Below, in pieces: positions 2,972-20,217 of a stretch of DNA of 64,000 nucleotides (the first letter of the stretch is position 1; each line of letters starts with the position of its first letter). The notes under the pieces are model-generated. The model did no database searches. It was not told the DNA's origin and saw only the letters and a program-made list of their open reading frames with translations. The stretch is from Candidatus Kapaibacterium sp. (GTDB lineage Bacteria > Bacteroidota > Ignavibacteria > Kapaibacteriales > UBA4661). The DNA is taken from positions 422 to 64,421 of the forward strand of contig JALONG010000002.1 of NCBI GenBank assembly GCA_025455065.1, written 5' to 3'. The translations under genes and the position numbers were made by a program.

Positions 2972-4416
2972 AACACATCCAATATATAATCCAAATAACT
3001 GCACCGTTTATTGCACCGGAGGTCGTGAGTAACCCGCCCACGTTGCTGTATCAAAAAGCGATTTTTCTGGTCTTGGCGTTGATGGTTATTACCGTTTCCT
3101 CATTTGGTAGTATTTTCTTTTATGCAAGTATTGATGCGGCGGTGCTTGCAGTGTTTTCGGCTATTATTTTCTTGACCTGTCTGCTTTCCTTGGGTGTACT
3201 CTATTTTTCTCGCAATATCCACCAAGCAGCTAATATCCTTGTTTTGGGGCTGTTGATTGCCAATACGGCAGCCGTATTGCAGACCGGTGGAATTTTCTCC
3301 ATAATTATCTTCAGTTTTGCCCCTGTTGCAATACTGGGACTTGTTTTTTCTCATCGGCGGAAAATGGCGCAGATTGTATTTGTGTCAGTGGCTATTGTGC
3401 TTGTATTGATGATTCTTGAAGCTAACGGTTTCACACCAAAGCCAGTCTATAAAATTCAAGAAAGTTGGTTGTGGTTTGGGAGCATAATGATTCTACTCAT
3501 AATTGGTACGGTTGGCACTTTTTTCTTTTTGGATGCTATTAGGGAAAAAGCATATGAGCAATTGGAACAGGAACGGAATAGCGTCGAAGAGCGTATTTTG
3601 GAAGCAACGCAAAAACTGCAAAATCAACAACACCAAATTTCCCTCATCAACGAACATCTTGAAGAACGGAATACCGAGTTGCAACAAGCCATCCAGACCG
3701 CAGAAGCCGCACAAAAACTGCAAGCCGATGTGTTACGCAACATAGACCACGAAATGCGTACACCACTTTCGGTAATTCTGGGGTTTGCAGAAATTTTACA
3801 CGAAGAAGTTACCAGTCAAAACCCGGAATTGGTAACATTCGTCGAGCAGATTTCTCATGCCGGAGAAAACCTGTTGGGTATTTTTAACAATGCAAAAATA
3901 CTCACCACTGTCGAATCAAGCGATTTTGCGCTTAGTCCCAAAACCACGATTCTACCATCCTTGCTGCAGCAACTAACGGGGCTGTTTCATAACGAAGCAG
4001 TGCAAAAAGGTCTTGCGATATCGTGTTCGTGGTCGCCGGAGTGTGAAGAGCCTGTGTTGCTGGATGAAGAGTACGTGCAAATCATTCTGCGACAAGTGCT
4101 TTCAAACGCGGTGAAATTTACCAAACAAGGTTCGGTGCAGCTTCAATGTGCTGTTCTGAGGTCAAAAAGCGGTAAGGGCAGTGTGCTGGAGTTTCGTGTG
4201 ATTGATACGGGTGTGGGTATTGCAGCGGAATTTATGGACAAAATTTTTATGCCTTTTCAACAGCAGGATGCAAGCACCACAAGGCGCTTTGGCGGCTTAG
4301 GGCTTGGGCTTGCGGTGGTCTTGGCAATAGTGAATGCGATGAATGGCAAGGTTTGGTGCGAGTCTGTTGTGGGAAAAGGTACGACGTTTATTGTGGAATT
4401 GCCGCTTGCAGAATAG
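2968..4416 (+). CDS. Polytopic membrane sensor histidine kinase, type B core: about 6 TM helices, coiled coil, HisKA, HATPase_c. The likely start at ATG 2968 overlaps the upstream stop as ATGA; the ORF track begins at 2938.
   Basis: Hydrophobic N-terminal 190 aa, H-box NIDHEMRTPLSVILGFAEIL, NAVKFT, DTGVGI, GGLGLGLAVV. Paralog of 17200..18657. Confidence 0.8.
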   Translation: MKHIQYIIQITAPFIAPEVVSNPPTLLYQKAIFLVLALMVITVSSFGSIFFYASIDAAVLAVFSAIIFLTCLLSLGVLYFSRNIHQAANILVLGLLIANTAAVLQTGGIFSIIIFSFAPVAILGLVFSHRRKMAQIVFVSVAIVLVLMILEANGFTPKPVYKIQESWLWFGSIMILLIIGTVGTFFFLDAIREKAYEQLEQERNSVEERILEATQKLQNQQHQISLINEHLEERNTELQQAIQTAEAAQKLQADVLRNIDHEMRTPLSVILGFAEILHEEVTSQNPELVTFVEQISHAGENLLGIFNNAKILTTVESSDFALSPKTTILPSLLQQLTGLFHNEAVQKGLAISCSWSPECEEPVLLDEEYVQIILRQVLSNAVKFTKQGSVQLQCAVLRSKSGKGSVLEFRVIDTGVGIAAEFMDKIFMPFQQQDASTTRRFGGLGLGLAVVLAIVNAMNGKVWCESVVGKGTTFIVELPLAE

Positions 4417-4515: not shown

Positions 4516-7500
4516 GTGATGAAGAGGTTATACCTCATAGATATGGGCTTCAGTTATTGCGCCATGAGACATTCTCTCCTCATCTTGCTTCTCCTTTTTG
4601 TTGCTGTCGCTGTACATTCTGTTGCGGCACAGCATTTGCCAATGTTTATGCCCCCGCAAGAACAACCTGCAACCCGCACTGCATTTGACCTCCATCCCCA
4701 AAAAAGCATTGCGCATTACATCCGCCGCACGTGGCAAATGGAGCAGGGGCTTCCGCAAAATTCCGCCCAAGCGCTTTGTCAGACACGCGACGGTTATTTA
4801 TGGATTGGCACCGAAGAAGGCTTGGTGCGCTTCGACGGAGTGCAGTTTACCGTTTTTGATGTGAATAATACCCCCGCTTTGGGGGCAAATACGATTCAGG
4901 CACTCTGCGAAGACCGCAGTGGAACGCTTTGGATAGGCACAAACGGCGGCGGGGTCTGTGCTTACAAAAACGGCGTGTTTACCTCATTTACGAGCCGTGA
5001 TGGCTTGTCCAACGATTTCGTCAGTTCCATTGTTGAAGACCGCACCGCAAGCGGCAAAACGGTGTTGTGGATTGGTACGTTGGGAGGTGGGCTGAATCGT
5101 ATGGAGATAAGCGGCAACGTGCCTGTTTTTACAGCCTACACAACTGCAAACGGGCTAACGCACAATATCATTTTCAGCCTTATTCAATCCCACACCGGAG
5201 CGCTGTGGATAGGTACAAACGGTGGAGGGGTGAATCGGTATGAACAGGGCGTATTTTCTGCCTTAACCACAGCCAACGGGCTGTCCCGCAATCAAGTCCG
5301 TTCTCTGTGCGAAGATAGGAACGGAGCGCTTTGGATAGGAACATTCGGCGGGGGCTTAAATTGCTATGCCGACGGCAAAATGACTGTCTTTACCACAAAA
5401 AACGGTCTGCGGCACGATATTGTCTGGTCGCTATGCGAAGACCGTAGTGGTGCGCTTTGGATAGGAACATTTGGCGGAGGGCTTAATCGTCTCTACAATG
5501 GCGTAATGAGCGCATATACCGAAAACAACGGACTTTCAAGTAACCTTGTGCGATCCATTTGCCAAGACCGCGAAGGTGCGCTCTGGGTAGGAACAGTGGG
5601 CGGTTTGAACAATTTTGCTGACGGGAAATTTACAACCTACACCACCAAAGACGGCTTGACGCATGATGTGGTGCGGGCTGTGCTTGGAGAGCGCTCAGGA
5701 AGCGGTATATGGGTTGGGACATTTGGCGGTGGTGTTAATGTCTTGACAAATGGTAACGTGCCAAGTGTCAAAAGTATCATTACTACTCGCGCCGGAGGAC
5801 TTCCGACGGACATCATTTATGCACTGTTGGAAGAGCGAAACGTTAGTGGAAAAGCGGGTGCCCTCTGGATAGGTACAAACGGCGGCGGATTATGCCGTGT
5901 ACAAGGCGGCAAAACAACGACGTTTACAACAAAAAACGGTTTGACCAACGATGTGGTTTTTACGCTGTTACAAGACAAAAAGGGCGTTTTGTGGATAGGA
6001 ACGGTCGGCGGTGGGGTAAACCGTTACGAAAACGGTGTATTTACGCATCTGACCACACAAGAAGGGCTTCCGAGCGACAATGTGCGAGCATTGCTGGAAG
6101 ATAGGAATGGTGCTGTTTGGATAGGAACTGTTGGGGGTGGTATTGCACAGTATTTCGAGGGGAAAATCACGGTTTACTCCACTAACGAAGGGCTTTCCAA
6201 CAACACCATCCGCTCATTCCACGAAGATGAAACGGGTGTGTTGTGGGTTGGTACGGTTGGCGGAGGGCTGTGCCGCTTCAAAGACGGCGTGTTTCGGGCA
6301 ATCACCACCAAACATGGGCTGTTTAATGACGTTATTCACTCCATTGTGGATGACGGTTGCGGATATTTCTGGATGTCCTGCAACAAAGGGATATTTCGTG
6401 TCCTGAAGCAAGATTTGAACGCCTTTGCCGACGGCACAAAAAAAAGTGTTACAAGCGATGTGTTCGGCACATTAGACGGAATGTTTAATGCCGAATGTAA
6501 TAGCGGCAGTCCCGCAGGAATACGCGACGCACGCGGGAATCTTTGGTTTGCAACGATGACGGGTGTTGTTACGGTGAACCCTCGCAGTAACGGGCTTGGC
6601 GGGGGAATGGTACAGCCGACGGTCATCATTGAAGCGGTGCAAGCAGACAGCCTTCGGAGAGACGTTTCTGCGCCGCTCACGGTGTCTGCGAATGCTGAGA
6701 ACATCGAATTTCATTATACCGCCACAAGTCTGACTGCGCCTGAGCGCACGCGCTTTCGCTATATGCTCGAAGGCTTCGACAAAGAATGGGTTGATGCAGG
6801 GAAACGGCGTGTTGCCTATTACACGCACTTGCCGAAAGGGCGTATGTACCGCTTTTGTGTACAGGCGAGTAATGGTCAAGGGCGCTGGGGAAGCGGTATG
6901 GCATCAGTGGAACTGACCTTGGAAGCAGCATTTTGGGAAACATGGTGGTTTTATGCGCTCTGTGGGATTTCGCTGGGGGGATTGATTATTCTTGCCGTGC
7001 GTATGCGGATTGGGCAGTTTCAGCGTCGTGCGAAGCGCTTGGAATCTCTTGTTTATGAGCGTACGACGGAGCTACGCCAAAGCAACGAAGAAATTCAACA
7101 TCATCTGGAAGTGCTGGACAAACAATCGCAGGAAATTGAGAGTGCAAACACCGTTCTCCGCGAGAAAAACCTTCAACTTGAGGCGTTGCACCAAGAAAAA
7201 GACGAGTTTTTGGGTATTGCCGCACATGATTTGCGGAATCCTTTGGCGAGCATCAAAATTGCGGCTGAACTCATTCGTAAAGCCCGTTCTGTGCCGTCTG
7301 GAGAAGGAATTGTTACTGAGCAGTTACACAAAATTGAGATTCTGGCAGAGCGTATGACGGGTATCGTTTCTAATTTCTTGGATTTGAACGCTCTAGAATC
7401 CGGTGCAATGCAGGTCGGTCGTCAGGAAGTAGCTCTGCGTCCGCTTGTGCAGGAAATCATTGAGGAATATCGTACCAAAGCAGCAATCAAACATATCACA

Positions 7501-7950
7501 GTTATTGCCGATTTCCCGGAAGCCGCTCCACTACTTGTGTTGGGGGATAAACAACTTATCGAAGAAGTTTTGGAAAATCTGCTGTCCAACGCCGTCAAAT
7601 TTTCGCCGCACGGGAAACGTGTCGTTGTCAGGATATGGGATAGCGGTAATGGGAAAAGGGCGGAGAACGTTGTAGAATCTTCATCTCCTGTTCCTTATCC
7701 TTCATCCGTGCTTCGTATCGAAATTCAGGACGAAGGTGCGGGAATTTCTGCCGAAGATATGCCGCTGTTGTTCAAAAAATTCACCAAACTCGCCACACGT
7801 CCGACAGGCGGCGAACACAGTACCGGTCTGGGACTCAGCATTGTCAAAAAGATGGTGGAAGCAATGAACGGGCGCGTTTGGTGCGAATCGGAATTAGGGA
7901 AAGGCGCGACATTTATTGTGGAATTGCCGCACGGGAGTGATATTTTGTGA
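4516..7950 (+). CDS. Sensor histidine kinase, type A core: beta-propeller, Y_Y_Y, TM, HisKA, HATPase_c. Alternative start at 4564 (MRHSLLILLLLF.., signal peptide).
   Basis: 1144-aa ORF with about 14 Reg_prop repeats, RFRYMLEGFDKEW, EFLGIAAHDLRNPL and GGEHSTGLGLSIVKKMVEAMNGRVWCESELGKGATFIVELP. A 20-aa insertion precedes the G1 box. Confidence 0.9.
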   Translation: MMKRLYLIDMGFSYCAMRHSLLILLLLFVAVAVHSVAAQHLPMFMPPQEQPATRTAFDLHPQKSIAHYIRRTWQMEQGLPQNSAQALCQTRDGYLWIGTEEGLVRFDGVQFTVFDVNNTPALGANTIQALCEDRSGTLWIGTNGGGVCAYKNGVFTSFTSRDGLSNDFVSSIVEDRTASGKTVLWIGTLGGGLNRMEISGNVPVFTAYTTANGLTHNIIFSLIQSHTGALWIGTNGGGVNRYEQGVFSALTTANGLSRNQVRSLCEDRNGALWIGTFGGGLNCYADGKMTVFTTKNGLRHDIVWSLCEDRSGALWIGTFGGGLNRLYNGVMSAYTENNGLSSNLVRSICQDREGALWVGTVGGLNNFADGKFTTYTTKDGLTHDVVRAVLGERSGSGIWVGTFGGGVNVLTNGNVPSVKSIITTRAGGLPTDIIYALLEERNVSGKAGALWIGTNGGGLCRVQGGKTTTFTTKNGLTNDVVFTLLQDKKGVLWIGTVGGGVNRYENGVFTHLTTQEGLPSDNVRALLEDRNGAVWIGTVGGGIAQYFEGKITVYSTNEGLSNNTIRSFHEDETGVLWVGTVGGGLCRFKDGVFRAITTKHGLFNDVIHSIVDDGCGYFWMSCNKGIFRVLKQDLNAFADGTKKSVTSDVFGTLDGMFNAECNSGSPAGIRDARGNLWFATMTGVVTVNPRSNGLGGGMVQPTVIIEAVQADSLRRDVSAPLTVSANAENIEFHYTATSLTAPERTRFRYMLEGFDKEWVDAGKRRVAYYTHLPKGRMYRFCVQASNGQGRWGSGMASVELTLEAAFWETWWFYALCGISLGGLIILAVRMRIGQFQRRAKRLESLVYERTTELRQSNEEIQHHLEVLDKQSQEIESANTVLREKNLQLEALHQEKDEFLGIAAHDLRNPLASIKIAAELIRKARSVPSGEGIVTEQLHKIEILAERMTGIVSNFLDLNALESGAMQVGRQEVALRPLVQEIIEEYRTKAAIKHITVIADFPEAAPLLVLGDKQLIEEVLENLLSNAVKFSPHGKRVVVRIWDSGNGKRAENVVESSSPVPYPSSVLRIEIQDEGAGISAEDMPLLFKKFTKLATRPTGGEHSTGLGLSIVKKMVEAMNGRVWCESELGKGATFIVELPHGSDIL

Positions 7951-12088: not shown

Positions 12089-14449
12089 ATGCAGTGCAAT
12101 ATATTTCATACTATCTTGACGTTAAGTCCAAAACGCCATTACCGACTGTTTCAACGGTTAGTCGTGGTGCGATACTGCCTGCAATGGTGCTTCGCAATGG
12201 TGTGTATCATTTTGCCCTTGTCAGAAATTTTGGCACAAACGCGGATGCCCCCAGAAGCGCTATTGCTCACCGAAGCGTTGATGCTCACCGAACAAGATTT
12301 GGAGCGCGATGCCAATCTTTTGGGTATAACGGGTGTTCGCGGAGCAACGCTCTACACAGCGCCTTGGCGGTATTCTCCGGCGGATTCACCGGATTTTTCT
12401 TCTCCGACATTGAACGACAGCGCTTGGAAACGTCTGCCGTATTCAATGTTTTGTGCTGACACGATGTCTTGGAAGGTGTGGAAAGGTGCGGCATGGTTTC
12501 GTTTGCGGATAAAGGTTTCAAAAGATCTCCACCGCCGTCCGCTTGTGTTGGCTACGCCTTCAGTTGGCGCAATGGATGTGTATTGTGATGGTGTGCTGCT
12601 CGGGACGCTGGGGCGCGTCGGCACAAGCGCCGAAAACGAAATCCTACCAAATTATGCACGAAGTAGTATCCGCATTTTTCCACTGTTACCCGATTCCGCA
12701 CGAGAATACACGATTGCTGTGCGTTACTCATGTTTTAACCATAACAGCTACCGACGCGCTTTTCTAGGCTGGCAACCCGCGCCAATGCTGGGGATGAATA
12801 TGGTCGTAATGGAAGAATCATCATGGCAACTCTATCGAAGCCGCGTCCAATCGGTGTTGGTGGAGTTTGGCGCATACTGCATTGCGCCTTTGTTGGCGTT
12901 TGTGGTGCATTTGCTGTTTTTCTTGCTCTACCGCTCGGAGCGGAGCAATCTTGCCTTGGCGGTATGTAATCTGATGTTGGCAATCGCGGCATTTTTGGGT
13001 TTGTTGTTATTGCATGATGTTGGGCAGACAATTAAGACGATATTTTTTGCGAATATCCTTGTGCGCTCTGCGATAAGTTTTGCATTTTTAGCGTTTGCCT
13101 ATTCGCTGTATTATCTCTTTTTTGAGCCGCCGTTTCCCCGTACAAGGTATGCGATAATTGCGCTCACGGTCGTGGGGCAAATCTTCGCCTTCCGTCCGCT
13201 TTTTGTCGAGCCGAACTCTCGGTTTGCCAATGCGCAAGGTGTTCTGGTGTTGCCGTTATTGTATAGTTTGTATCTTGCTGTTCGCATAATGATGAAAAAG
13301 CCCAAAGGTGCATATACACTGGGGGTTGGAATCATCATTACCTTGATTGCCGTGGCGGTGGAAACCACATTGGAATTGCGCGGAGTAGTTTTTGCGGCAC
13401 GTCCGCCGCTTGTGGGCTTGATGATTCGTATGAGTATCTTTTTGTCATTGCCCATAGCGCTCATGCTGTCTATGGGGCAGCGTATCGCCGCTCAAACACA
13501 AGAGCTGACAGACCAAAATGAACTTCTTGAAAAGCAAGTTGAAGAGCGCACGGCAGAACTCCAAGCTGCAAATGAAGAAGTTCATCGTCAATTAACCATT
13601 TTAGAAGAGCAGTCCAGAAATATTGAGTTGGCAAGTGCCGAATTACAAGAGCGAAACAAGGTTCTCGACCAACTCAATACTGAAAAGGCAGAACTCATCG
13701 GCATTGTGGCGCACGATTTGAAAAATCCGATAAGCGGTGTTCTTGGTTTGACGGAGGTCTTATTAGAAGAAATTCCCAAAGAAGGTTTGGCAGCACAGAT
13801 TATTGAGCAAATTTCCTCGACAACAGCGCGAATGTTACAGTTGGTGAAAAATTTGCTGAATGTGCAGCAGTTCGAGACAGGAGGAATGCGGCTTCAGATG
13901 ACTGAATGTGATATGATGCCTCTTCTCGAATCCATTCTCTCGGCACATCGTCACCATGCCGAAGGGAAAAATATTGCAATCAATGTACTGCCAACATCAA
14001 CAAGTACAGTCGTTTTGGGCGATGAACAAGCGCTCTTGCAGGTGTTCGATAATCTCATTTCCAATGCCGTAAAATATTCCCCGCAGGGAAAAAATGTGTT
14101 CATTCGCCTGAGCAGGCACTCTCAAGACAGCAATAATACTGAAGCCACACACAAAACCAATGACCAGGGGCTAATGACTAATGACCACGCAACTAAGCAC
14201 CAGGCAACTAACCACCGCCTACGCATTGAAATTCAGGATGAAGGAGAAGGCATTACTGCTGAGGATATGAAAAAAATATTTGGTAAATATGCGCGTCTTT
14301 CTGCACGTCCGACCGCCGGAGAAGATAGTACAGGTTTGGGATTGAGCATTGTGAAATCATTGGTGACCGCCATGAATGGTGATGTTTGGTGCGAGTCTCA
14401 GCCACAACAAGGAGCGACGTTCCTAGTGGAATTGCCGTTAGCAGAGTAA
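12089..14449 (+). CDS. 7TMR-DISM sensor histidine kinase (extracellular domain plus 7 TM), type A core, with a 35-aa TNDQ-rich insertion before the G1 box.
   Basis: N-terminal extracellular domain followed by about 7 hydrophobic helices, coiled coil, ELIGIVAHDLKNPI, NAVKYSPQGKN and GEDSTGLGLSIVKSLVTAMNGDVWCES. Insertion SQDSNNTEATHKTNDQGLMTNDHATKHQATNHR. Confidence 0.85.
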   Translation: MQCNIFHTILTLSPKRHYRLFQRLVVVRYCLQWCFAMVCIILPLSEILAQTRMPPEALLLTEALMLTEQDLERDANLLGITGVRGATLYTAPWRYSPADSPDFSSPTLNDSAWKRLPYSMFCADTMSWKVWKGAAWFRLRIKVSKDLHRRPLVLATPSVGAMDVYCDGVLLGTLGRVGTSAENEILPNYARSSIRIFPLLPDSAREYTIAVRYSCFNHNSYRRAFLGWQPAPMLGMNMVVMEESSWQLYRSRVQSVLVEFGAYCIAPLLAFVVHLLFFLLYRSERSNLALAVCNLMLAIAAFLGLLLLHDVGQTIKTIFFANILVRSAISFAFLAFAYSLYYLFFEPPFPRTRYAIIALTVVGQIFAFRPLFVEPNSRFANAQGVLVLPLLYSLYLAVRIMMKKPKGAYTLGVGIIITLIAVAVETTLELRGVVFAARPPLVGLMIRMSIFLSLPIALMLSMGQRIAAQTQELTDQNELLEKQVEERTAELQAANEEVHRQLTILEEQSRNIELASAELQERNKVLDQLNTEKAELIGIVAHDLKNPISGVLGLTEVLLEEIPKEGLAAQIIEQISSTTARMLQLVKNLLNVQQFETGGMRLQMTECDMMPLLESILSAHRHHAEGKNIAINVLPTSTSTVVLGDEQALLQVFDNLISNAVKYSPQGKNVFIRLSRHSQDSNNTEATHKTNDQGLMTNDHATKHQATNHRLRIEIQDEGEGITAEDMKKIFGKYARLSARPTAGEDSTGLGLSIVKSLVTAMNGDVWCESQPQQGATFLVELPLAE
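14122..14220 (+). repeat. In-frame heptamer-like (ACCAATG / ACTAATG) repeat tract encoding a TNDQ-rich insertion inside the HATPase domain.
   Basis: AAAACCAATGACCAGGGGCTAATGACTAATGACCACGCAACTAAGCACCAGGCAACTAACCACC has 7-nt periodicity. Homologous tracts occur in three other HK genes. Confidence 0.55.
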
Positions 14450-14685
14450 TCCTATGGTTCTCGGCAACCAAGGTTCTTCAGCCAAGGTATCAAGCGAGAG
14501 TATGCCTTCTTGGGCAGGCTCTTGCTTCGGAATGAGAGCTATCCGCGTGAGAGGTAAGGTTCTCGCACCTGACCAGTTACCTTTCCTTGACGATGATACA
14601 CTTCTTTGATGCAATACACTGAATTTGGATAGAGGTTCTCACTATGAAAACTCCATTATTCTGATGAAATCAACTATTCGGAATC

Positions 14686-14922
14686 ATAACTATTCAGGTA
14701 TCGGTAAAAACAGTGAGAGTGGGAGGGACGCGGACTTCAGAGGACTTGAGAGGACGAAGAAGGCTTGAGAAAAAACCTTACGGGGGCGCTCCCATTCATG
14801 CGTCTGTTCCCTGTCGTCTCACATTCTTTGAAGTCATTTTGTCCTTTGAAGTCATTTTGTCCTTTGAAGTCCTCTTGTTCTCTCAAGTCTGCGTTCTTTG
14901 TATTGCATACCTGAATAGTTAC
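14686..14922. mobile_element. MITE-like 237-bp foldback element with 16-bp terminal inverted repeats and flanking 8-bp direct repeats (TCGGAATC).
   Basis: Left terminus ATAACTATTCAGGTAT (14686..14701) matches the reverse complement of the right terminus ATACCTGAATAGTTAC (14907..14922) at 15 of 16 positions. TCGGAATC occurs at 14678..14685 and 14923..14930. Internally there are GGACTTCAGA-type 10-mers (14732..14771), their inverse (14866..14889), and an 18-bp tandem repeat TTGAAGTCATTTTGTCCT x2.3 (14828..14875). Confidence 0.45.
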
Positions 14923-14949
14923 TCGGAATCTTTTACCACCAAACAATTC

Positions 14950-17097
14950 ATGGTTTACCTTTTTAAACAATATCTCCGCAACCGACAAACCAAGCACCAA
15001 TGCGCTTCAGCCTATTGGCGAGGTGTTTGTTGTCGTCTTGTTTGGAAGGCAGGTTTGGTGTTGTTGTTATTGCAGGTGTTTCGACAATTTCCAGTAACAG
15101 CGCAATCAAATGTGGCACAACAGTACCGCTTTCAAGGCAAATTAACGCTTGCACAACAAGAAGCGGAAAAAGCATTGCTGACACGATTAGAACGTGCGCG
15201 AGACACCGTGCGTGTAGAGATTTTGGATTCGATTGCTTGGGTGTATCGCGGAACGGATTTTGGTCGTGCAATGTATTACGCCCAACAAGCTGCGCAGGAA
15301 GTTGCACGCTTGGGTTTTCCTCGCGTACGAGCAGAAAATAACAATTACATCGGCATTATTCATCGGAATTTAGGGAACTATCCCAAAGCAATGCAATCTT
15401 TTGATGAAGCACGACGTATTGCCGAGCAGTATGGTTACAGACGGGAATTGGGCTATGCGCTGAATAATATCGGCGAGATTTACCGTTTTCAAGAGAAATA
15501 TGCCGAAGCACGGGATTATGTTTTCAGAGCGCAAAAAATTTTTCTCCAACTCCGCGATACAAGCGGTTTGTACTATTCAGCGATTCGTCTGGGGGAAATA
15601 GCCCTGAGTCTTCAGAGTTACCCACAAGGATTGGCATACTTTCAAGAGGCAGAGCGGTATTCCCTTTTAACGCATAACAAGGTTTGGGAAGCAGGTGTGC
15701 TGAATCGTCTTGGACAGGTGCTACGTTTGCAGAAGCAGTACCAATCAGCACTGGAAGTTTTTTTGCGAGCCTTAGCGATTGCACGGACATTAGAACACGA
15801 TGAAGATGAACAATCACATATTTTGATAGAAATTGGGAAAACACATATTGCCGTAGGAAGTACGGATTCAGCAACTCTATACTTGAAACAGGGATTAGCC
15901 ATAGCAGAAGCAATCGGTATCAAGCAACGTGTCTTAGAATCCTCAAAAAACCTAGCGGAAATTTTTACCCGACAGCGCAGTTACGAAGAAGCATTGCGGT
16001 ATCGTACCTTACAAATGACAATGAAAGACTCCCTGTTTTCTGAATTAGGGCGGCGAGAAATCGAAAAAATTAGCGCACGGTACGAGCTTGAAAAGCAGCA
16101 AAATGATATTGCTGCTTTGAGTGCAGCTCAAAAACAGGAGCGTATTATCAGCACCGGCTTAGTGATTGGTGTGATGTTGCTGCTGGCTGTTGCGTTACTG
16201 CTGTATCGAAATGTTCGAGCCGAACAACGTGCAAACCAAGAAATAATGCGCCAGCAGGAGGTTTTGGAGCATCAAGCGTTGGAAATTGAAACGACCAACA
16301 CGACGCTGCAAGAACAAAATGAGGAACTTGCTGCGCTGAACACCGAAAAAACAGAATTGATGAACATTGTGGCACATGATTTGAAAAACCCGATTGGAGC
16401 AATCCATGGGCTTGCAGACTTGATTACAAGCGGTATGGTACAGGAAAAACAAGTACAGGAAACGGCAGAGCATATCGCGATGACAGCAGAACGAATGTTG
16501 CGGCTGGTGACGAATGTTCTTGATAGTTCAAAGTTTGAGGCAGGGATGACCCAACTTGAGGCTGTGGAATTTGACATCATTCCCGTTATTGAACTGACGT
16601 GTTCTCAATACCAAGCAGCAGCCGAAGCAAAAGGCATTTCGCTTCATGTTGAATCTCATGGTGAATCGGCTCTCGCATTGGCTAATGAACAAGCGCTCAT
16701 ACAGGTTGCTGACAATATCATTTCCAATGCCGTGAAATATTCTCCGCAGGGAAAAAAAGTGTGGGTGAGAATTTGGAGCAAGAATGAAGAGTATTCGCCA
16801 ATGCTCAATGGTGATTCGTTCAATAACCAAATGACCAACGACCAAAAAACAAATGGTAATGTCGTCCGCATAGAAGTTGTGGATGAGGGACCCGGTATTT
16901 CGGAAGAGGATATGAAAAAACTCTTTGGTAAATTTGCACGCCTCTCTGCCCGTCCCACAGGTGGTGAGCATAGTACGGGTTTAGGGTTGAATATCGTAAA
17001 AATGCTGGTCGAATTGATGAACGGGCGCGTGTGGTGTGAATCGAAACTTGGGTACGGCGCAACATTTATCGTGGAATTGCCGACGAATGTCTCGTAG
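14950..17097 (+). CDS. TPR-repeat sensor histidine kinase, type A core. The likely start at 14950 (MVYLF..LVLLLLQVF..AQS, signal-like) lies just downstream of a foldback element; the ORF track start at 14713 reads through repeats.
   Basis: TPR-like repeats, TM segment (LVIGVMLLLAVALLLY), coiled coil, ELMNIVAHDLKNPI and GGEHSTGLGLNIVKMLVELMNGRVWCESKLGYGATFIVELP. Short insertion NNQMTNDQKTNG. Confidence 0.8.
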   Translation: MVYLFKQYLRNRQTKHQCASAYWRGVCCRLVWKAGLVLLLLQVFRQFPVTAQSNVAQQYRFQGKLTLAQQEAEKALLTRLERARDTVRVEILDSIAWVYRGTDFGRAMYYAQQAAQEVARLGFPRVRAENNNYIGIIHRNLGNYPKAMQSFDEARRIAEQYGYRRELGYALNNIGEIYRFQEKYAEARDYVFRAQKIFLQLRDTSGLYYSAIRLGEIALSLQSYPQGLAYFQEAERYSLLTHNKVWEAGVLNRLGQVLRLQKQYQSALEVFLRALAIARTLEHDEDEQSHILIEIGKTHIAVGSTDSATLYLKQGLAIAEAIGIKQRVLESSKNLAEIFTRQRSYEEALRYRTLQMTMKDSLFSELGRREIEKISARYELEKQQNDIAALSAAQKQERIISTGLVIGVMLLLAVALLLYRNVRAEQRANQEIMRQQEVLEHQALEIETTNTTLQEQNEELAALNTEKTELMNIVAHDLKNPIGAIHGLADLITSGMVQEKQVQETAEHIAMTAERMLRLVTNVLDSSKFEAGMTQLEAVEFDIIPVIELTCSQYQAAAEAKGISLHVESHGESALALANEQALIQVADNIISNAVKYSPQGKKVWVRIWSKNEEYSPMLNGDSFNNQMTNDQKTNGNVVRIEVVDEGPGISEEDMKKLFGKFARLSARPTGGEHSTGLGLNIVKMLVELMNGRVWCESKLGYGATFIVELPTNVS

Positions 17098-19888: not shown

Positions 19889-19906
19889 GCTAACTGTTTG
19901 TGTCAT

Positions 19907-20023
19907 ATAGGACTTTCGCAAAACCATACTTTTGAGGCAAGGGGTTGAAACCCCTTGTTGCGTAAGTCATTGTTTAACAAGGGGCTTTAGCCCCTTGCGA
20001 CTTGTTTTTGCGAAAGTCCTATC
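19907..20023. repeat. Nested palindromic element: a perfect 17-bp outer inverted repeat enclosing two near-identical GC-stem hairpins. Probably a bidirectional terminator or a REP-like element between convergent genes.
   Basis: ATAGGACTTTCGCAAAA (19907..19923) and TTTTGCGAAAGTCCTAT (20007..20023) are perfect reverse complements. Inside are CAAGGGGTTGAAACCCCTTG (19938..19957) and CAAGGGGCTTTAGCCCCTTG (19978..19997). Confidence 0.6.
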
Positions 20024-20030
20024 ATAAATT

Positions 20031-20157
20031 TTTGACGCAGATTTTCATGATTCAACAGATTATCATGATTGCTCAAAAACAAACAACAAAACGAAAACTA
20101 TCTCGAAAGCCTCTCAAAATCAGCGCAATCAGTTTAATCATGACAATCTGCGTCAAA
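20031..20157. repeat. Short element bounded by a 22-bp imperfect inverted repeat (MITE-like, no clear target-site duplication).
   Basis: TTTGACGCAGATTTTCATGATT (20031..20052) matches the reverse complement of AATCATGACAATCTGCGTCAAA (20136..20157) at 21 of 22 positions. The spacer is A-rich. Confidence 0.45.
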
Positions 20158-20217
20158 GAGTGAAATAACAGTCTCGTTTTGATATGATGGCTACTTGACA
20201 ATGTTTTGAGGCAGGTA

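Follow-up and report, generated by a model that had tools for sequence, protein, structure and literature searches.

A probable MITE with ISBst12-group ends between two tandem histidine kinase genes

The window considered here (the whole stretch of DNA analysed, 64,000 nucleotides or 64 kb) contains four kinase genes in a row and, after them, moeA; two co-oriented histidine kinase genes of this array are kept apart by a spacer of 500 bp. Upstream lies the gene for a 7TMR-DISM-like histidine kinase with HisKA and HATPase_c domains (12089-14449, plus strand), and downstream a TPR histidine kinase gene (14950-17097, plus strand, start ATG at 14950). Inside the spacer sits a short segment that a sequence-only reading had described as a non-autonomous transposable element with a target-site duplication. 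The locus raises the questions of whether this segment was ever mobile, which transposase would have moved it, and what it means for the kinase gene that follows.

The segment (14686-14922) is 237 bp long, non-coding and able to fold back on itself. Its left terminal inverted repeat, ATAACTATTCAGGTAT (14686-14701, plus strand), departs from the consensus GTAACTATTCAGGTAT at position 1, where G is replaced by A; the right repeat, ATACCTGAATAGTTAC (14907-14922, minus strand), reads GTAACTATTCAGGTAT on the minus strand. The two agree at 15 of 16 positions, with a 15-nt core that is complementary throughout (15/15), and the 15-mer end, allowing up to two mismatches, occurs in the 64-kb window at two sites, both of them ends of the element, where shuffled sequences lead one to expect 0.10. 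The direct repeat TCGGAATC adjoins both ends as identical 8-bp copies (14678-14685 and 14923-14930, 8/8). The length of 237 bp, the 16-bp inverted termini and the perfect 8-bp direct repeat claimed in the sequence-only reading were thus all recovered.

The interior consists largely of two opposed arms. The left arm carries 10-bp repeats, GGACTTCAGA / GGACTTGAGA / AGGCTTGAGA (14729-14770, plus strand), with the GGACTTCAGA-type repeat at 14732-14755 and a looser extension to about 14770. These are complementary to an 18-bp tandem repeat in the right arm, CTTTGAAGTCATTTTGTC, present in 3.6 copies (14826-14889, plus strand), and the arms set GGACTTC and GAAGTCC motifs against each other, as had been noted before together with the tandem repeat. 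The long hairpin proposed on these grounds was also borne out by folding: as DNA, the element forms one long hairpin of -38.9 kcal/mol (z = -4.56), and as RNA it reaches -90.2 kcal/mol (z = -6.22), with none of 200 shuffles as stable in either case. Rfam contains no family for the element: its sole match, a plant miRNA model, scores 21.7 bits where the gathering threshold is 120. Searches by tblastn with IS66 and ISBst12 transposases gave no match in the 64-kb window, and the only ORF that crosses the element is the artefactual one from 14713, discussed below. The HIP1 palindrome GCGATCGC, typical of cyanobacteria, is absent from the window, and the names under which homologues are filed indicate Kapabacteria/Bacteroidota.

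Does the same end occur elsewhere? The collections were searched with the pattern CTATTCAGGTAT, N160-220, ATACCTGAATAG (chance expectation <1), which matched 54 loci in the metagenome collection and two in the genome collection, one in a Ruminococcus MAG (L097) and one in a Bacteroidetes MAG (L098). Twenty-two elements, corresponding to 20 independent insertions, reach the same 16-bp end, GT(A/T)ACTATTCAGGTAT; this count takes in the window copy, its orthologue and one duplicate record. These roughly 20 same-ended elements are 190-250 bp long, are found on Bacteroidota-type metagenome contigs and in the two MAGs, and diverge right inside and right outside the 16-bp end, with unrelated interiors and different flanks. 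Perfect 8-bp duplications border 10 of the 20 independent insertions, the window copy included, and two more show duplications matching at 7 of 8 positions; the duplicated sites all differ from one another and are mostly AT-rich. Since the search pattern required 12 exact bases per end, independent evidence within this MITE set comes only from what it did not impose, namely the outer four bases and the 8-bp duplications. Judged from these outer bases and duplications, the elements that share this terminus are a family that has transposed. It divides into several subfamilies, unrelated in their interiors; one has at least 14 copies in metagenome SDBV01. The informative neighbours of family members are Bacteroidota-type housekeeping genes, for example Por_Secre_tail and SprB.

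The SDBV01 subfamily, the largest of the sister subfamilies (L108 1798-2034, L112 14370-14606, L139 997-1240 and others), has features of its own: subterminal repeats, GGTATAAGG/GGTATAGGG, similar to the inner portion of the terminal repeat, and a conserved 32-codon ORF, MKKPKEYINDKKEEYKVEDILVKYNAQKEVVV. Other candidates were set aside. At 35 loci of the metagenome assembly JAAUYA01 the 12-mer lies inside a longer terminal repeat starting CACAGGCTTACATC, and the copies checked by eye have 4-bp duplications, which marks them as a different family and the match as coincidental. The JAAUYA01 MITE (L100, L102, L105, L109-L111 and others) is abundant and about 270 bp long, with long terminal repeats CACAGGCTTACATCAAGAAAGGGCGTACACCTATTCAGGTAT... 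and with CTATTCAGGTAT placed internally and not at the terminus; it most likely represents an unrelated family. Candidates on viral contigs were likewise dropped, as the 95 matches to the 15-mer end are about the number expected by chance, and the long candidate 'elements' in L067/L096 and L045/L051 sit within phage gene arrays. A literature search for the end sequence returned only an irrelevant primer.

A second copy with the interior of the window element was found neither in the 64-kb window nor in PLSDB or the other collections searched, the source genome being outside the genome collection; blastn against PLSDB with the element and with a sister MITE gave no match. Among the 76 ORFs neighbouring the MITEs no transposase was seen (best 25 of 153 Pfam families), and tblastn detected no ISBst12-type transposase on any contig bearing a MITE of the family.

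The identity of the transposase was approached through the ends. To our knowledge, ends that begin with GTAA are found only in the IS66 family among IS families. The right end of the window element begins GTAAC, and the left ATAAC, through a single substitution that is also present in the orthologue. The published hallmark by which the IS66 family is recognised combines GTAA at the ends with duplications of 8 bp, the ends being given as starting GTAAGCG and producing 8-bp repeats (PMC11946415). IS682 of E. coli Sakai, with ends GTAAGCGT and the duplication TCTTTCTC, agrees with this hallmark. The classical IS66 group was nevertheless rejected as the source of the window element: classical ends run GTAAGCG..., as in GTAAGCGT, GTAAGCGCC and GTAAACGC, whereas the window end reads GTAACTATTC, and the likeness stops after GTAA. 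A tblastn search of plasmids with classical TnpC was dominated by enterobacterial IS66 elements, gut 'phage' contigs yielded only classical IS66 with GTAAGCG ends, and pLW1071 contains no IS66 element.

A much closer likeness was found in the ISBst12 group of the same family. ISDge4, an experimentally active member, carries GTGACTACTCAGCA / GTAACTGCTCAGCA at its ends and makes an 8-bp duplication (PMC12898284). An element of the Geobacillus plasmid pHTA426, listed as belonging to the ISBst12 group (PMC8024623), occupies L167 14107-15741 and contains a single ORF for a 485-aa protein that matches DDE_Tnp_IS66 with E = 1.9e-64; its left end is GTATCTATTCAGCCC, its right end GTAACTATTCAGCCC, and the 8-bp duplication GACGAGTT is present on both sides. 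On contigs of the metagenome and viral collections, homologous transposases belong to ISs with GTAACTATTCAG ends and perfect 8-bp duplications: ATAAAAAG in L168 (ends GTAACTATTCAGCCCC / GTAACTATTCAGGACA), CATTTAAT in L181, CTAACGAC in L185, AGAAAATC in L188/189, AAATCCCC in L190 and CTATGGCA in L192. Other homologous ISs have the variant end motifs GTAACTGCTCAG, GTAACTACTCAG and GTTACTACTTAG. The first 12 nt of the window end, GTAACTATTCAG, recur unchanged at the ends of the pHTA426 IS, the P0092 IS and the ISs of L181, L185, L188/189, L190 and L192. The full 16-mer (...GGTAT) was found in none of the autonomous ISs examined, the best match being 13/16 at the right end of the P0092 IS. The contigs L168-L171 show one ISBst12-type IS with its flanks swapped among three sites (ATAAAAAG, CACCTTTT, AGAAGTTC), which suggests that IS copies recombined or that contigs were chimerically assembled across them.

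The identity of the ends and the equal length of the duplication assign the window element to the ISBst12 group, as a derivative or a parasite, and the conservation of ISBst12-group ends across several phyla explains why the same terminus is met in unrelated hosts. The element is best read as an ISBst12-group-derived MITE that would have been moved in trans. Together with the roughly 20 same-ended elements, these ends lend support to the earlier description of a non-autonomous transposable element with a target-site duplication. With a probability of roughly 85%, then, we interpret 14686-14922 as a MITE with ISBst12-group (IS66 family) ends that was inserted with an 8-bp duplication and is unable to move alone. 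We infer that a cognate ISBst12-type transposase exists or existed in the host and moved the window copy. In the proposed sequence of events, a single-ORF DDE transposase of the ISBst12 group, made elsewhere in the genome, would bind both ends of the element and, by cutting the DNA between the two kinase genes with an 8-bp stagger, insert it there; repair of this cut would leave the TCGGAATC duplication; and, after the split of two strains described below, the only changes to the interior would have been whole repeat units gained or lost. The open-access literature yielded no description of ISBst12-derived MITEs, and the element probably belongs to an undescribed MITE family.

Two other origins would keep the element a transposon product. 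The first is a MITE moved by another family of transposases that makes 8-bp duplications (IS6, ISL3, IS256, IS1595 or others), its likeness to ISBst12 being a coincidence. The missing cognate transposase, both in the window and on MITE-bearing contigs, would suit this origin, as would the inner GTAT of the end, absent from every autonomous IS examined. It is nonetheless very improbable, given that 12 consecutive terminal nucleotides are identical in at least seven distinct ISBst12-group ISs from different hosts, that these ISs have the same duplication length, and that GTAAGCG ends with 8-bp repeats are what PMC11946415 gives for IS66. The second is an in-situ remnant of a full-length ISBst12-type IS, which lost its transposase gene by internal deletion and never transposed in its short form. 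Such a remnant would have IS-type ends and an interior known in a single copy, as observed here; what makes it quite improbable is that the interior is a near-perfect foldback of short repeats and bears no similarity to transposase coding sequence or to subterminal IS sequence, and that many sister elements of the same size class are multi-copy MITEs.

The history of the insertion can be followed in one close relative, L099 (the same locus as L133), from JGI metagenome 3300017675, which has the same gene array, near-identical flanks and a kinase that is 99% identical. Its element lies at the same site between the same TCGGAATC flanks, which places the insertion in the window before the split of the two strains. 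Compared with the window copy, the left arm has gained one repeat unit, the right arm has lost one 18-bp unit, and a few SNPs are present, one of which changes the right end from GTAAC to GTGAC; the predicted hairpin is more stable (-99.3 kcal/mol, z = -7.4). In more distant relatives, whose kinases are about 60% identical and which lack strict synteny, the kinase abuts the gene upstream, the distance being -4 to 82 bp. A check for empty sites comes down to L099, the only close relative, which is occupied, and to distant relatives that have no such spacer in a context that is not strictly syntenic. These short spacers fit a secondary origin of the 500-bp spacer, within the limits set by the loose synteny.

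L099 also contains a second, unrelated foldback element of 193 bp (3456-3648), whose terminal repeat, GGTTCTAAATGATTGTAGTTGGAAA, is 25 bp long and whose 8-bp duplication reads CGGAATCA. Its insertion point falls exactly between the left duplication and the first base of the first element (window 14685/14686). The window does not have it and thereby represents its empty site; no copy of it was found anywhere in the 64 kb. Its GG... ends and 8-bp duplication would suit IS6 or ISL3.

The comparison with L099 bears on an explanation without any mobility, namely that the segment is a vertically inherited structured regulatory region, such as a long 5'-UTR or an intercistronic hairpin, in which the inverted ends and the direct repeat are incidental. 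Sequence and flanks are indeed alike in the sole close relative, folding predicts a very stable hairpin for either strain, and the collections searched contain no second copy of the interior. Against this stand the 16-bp ends common to about 20 elements with other interiors, other flanks and 8-bp duplications, the match of these ends to autonomous ISBst12-group ISs, the lack of an Rfam match, and the distant relatives that do without such a spacer. The shared transposon ends largely refute this explanation, which we consider extremely improbable.

The spacer upstream of the ISBst12-type MITE contains further end-like sequence. The left flank AACTATTCGGAATC (14672-14685, plus strand), which includes the left copy of the duplication, matches the conserved 12-nt end motif at 9 of 12 positions, so that the resemblance to the terminus, raised earlier as the ground for a possible nested or duplicated insertion, is real and marginal (estimated p ~0.03 for the neighbourhood). 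A solo ISBst12-type end motif, GTAACTGGTCAG (14569-14580, minus strand), is an exact match to GTAACTNNTCAG, of which about 0.1-0.2 are expected per window; it lies 105 bp upstream of the MITE in right-end orientation, is conserved in L099, and has no partner end, duplication or foldback around it. The possibility that the spacer 14440-14685 is itself a degenerate copy of the MITE found no support, its local alignment score of 22 falling within the range of shuffles (mean 17.5, maximum 25). As far as these motifs indicate, an earlier insertion of this type may have left a relic in the spacer; alternatively, the transposase may prefer targets that resemble the ends. Elsewhere in the window, an exact GTAACTGCTCAG, the ISDge4-type end, occurs on the minus strand at 7316-7327 inside the ORF 4516-7950, and is probably due to chance.

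Is the window copy still able to move, and does it affect the genes around it? A terminal G is found in 40 of 42 ends of the family; only the window copy and its orthologue (L133) depart from this, each with A at its left end. The change from G to A at the left terminus probably cripples the window copy, which on this evidence would now probably be a fixed, immobile fossil. The strains differ in the interior by whole repeat units gained or lost, which fits replication slippage in a neutrally evolving foldback. Around the element no promoter was detected, either of the sigma-70 type or with the Bacteroidota -7 motif TAnnTTTG, and a terminator-like hairpin is present on the minus strand (14795-14780). 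Should the kinase genes be co-transcribed, the transcript would gain from the element a hairpin of 237 nt and about -90 kcal/mol, placed 27 nt before the start codon, and a regulatory side-effect of this predicted structure is possible.

A stronger version of this idea is that the host has co-opted the MITE, either through the hairpin, as a terminator, insulator or RNase target, or through the GGACTTC repeats, which, spaced at 10 bp, could be protein-binding sites that control how strongly the downstream kinase is expressed. Its position in a kinase array that is elsewhere densely packed, 27 bp before the kinase start, its retention in both strains with a hairpin in the relative of -99 kcal/mol, and the terminator-like hairpin on the minus strand would all be in keeping with such a role. 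Co-option is nevertheless unlikely, considering that neither kind of promoter-like site is seen, that the repeat number varies between the strains, and that the relative tolerates a second MITE at the very edge of the element. Doubtful, too, is a broader proposal in which the window element and its approximately 20 relatives, in Bacteroidota-type hosts and one Ruminococcus MAG, would form an undescribed and widely dispersed MITE superfamily that parasitises ISBst12-group transposases, the window copy perhaps being kept as an insulator or tuner of the tandem kinases.

The ISBst12-type MITE has a more direct consequence for the annotation of the downstream kinase. The ORF called from GTG 14713 begins at the first start codon after a stop, and transposon sequence makes up its initial 79 codons. 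In the same frame, ATG 14950, 27 bp downstream of the right end of the element, is the start called in a 99%-identical homologue (P0001), and related kinases are 649-754 aa long. The downstream kinase starts at 14950, as the sequence-only reading had proposed as probable and as the P0001 start call and the sizes of related kinases now support, and the 14713 start is an artefact of reading through the MITE; in the longest ORF, the N-terminal 79 codons are to be annotated as transposon sequence and not as protein.

The spacer after moeA contains two further MITE-like foldbacks. The first (19907-20022) has arms ATAGGACTTTCGCAAAACCA / TGTTTTTGCGAAAGTCCTAT, TCATA on both flanks and two hairpins of type CAAGGGGYTTNARCCCCTTG inside; the second (20031-20157) has 40-nt arms that are 83% complementary. 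The spacer that contains them (19889-20217) is unrelated to the matching spacer of the 99%-identical strain (L099 8849-9004), and the CAAGGGGYTTNARCCCCTTG-type hairpin module is also present in the second L099 element and in a distant relative (L165 8750-8830). Small foldback elements are still turning over between 99%-identical strains of this uncultured Bacteroidota/Kapabacteria-like lineage. In practical terms, the signature of GTAACTATTCAG ends with an 8-bp duplication can be used to spot ISBst12-group ISs and their MITEs in metagenomes, where such elements break assemblies and inflate ORF calls. The current understanding of transposition is left unchanged, and the value for annotation is modest.

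Among known systems, classical IS66 elements of the IS682/ISEc8 type resemble the window element in ends that start with GTAA and in 8-bp duplications, but their ends continue as GTAAGCG... where the window element has GTAACTATTCAG, and they contain three ORFs, tnpA-tnpB-tnpC, whereas the window element is non-coding. The ISBst12 group (ISBst12, the pHTA426 element annotated as 'IS66-like element ISGka4 family', and ISDge4) is closer: the 12 nt at the termini, GTAACTATTCAG, agree fully or almost fully, the target-site duplication is 8 bp in both, and both types occur in Bacteroidota- and Firmicutes-type hosts. In contrast to these ISs of about 1.6-1.8 kb, the window element measures 237 bp without a transposase gene, its left terminal G is mutated to A, and the inner GTAT of its terminal repeat and its whole interior are unrelated to theirs. 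From other bacterial MITEs it differs in its parent, which is ISBst12/IS66 and not IS982, IS630 or IS5, and in a multi-copy state that is seen only in sister subfamilies of other organisms. Like them, for example the IS982-derived MITE of Cardinium (PMC9769881), it is small, non-coding and intergenic with foldback potential, and, as in bacterial MITEs generally, it combines the ends of its parent IS with a target-site duplication.
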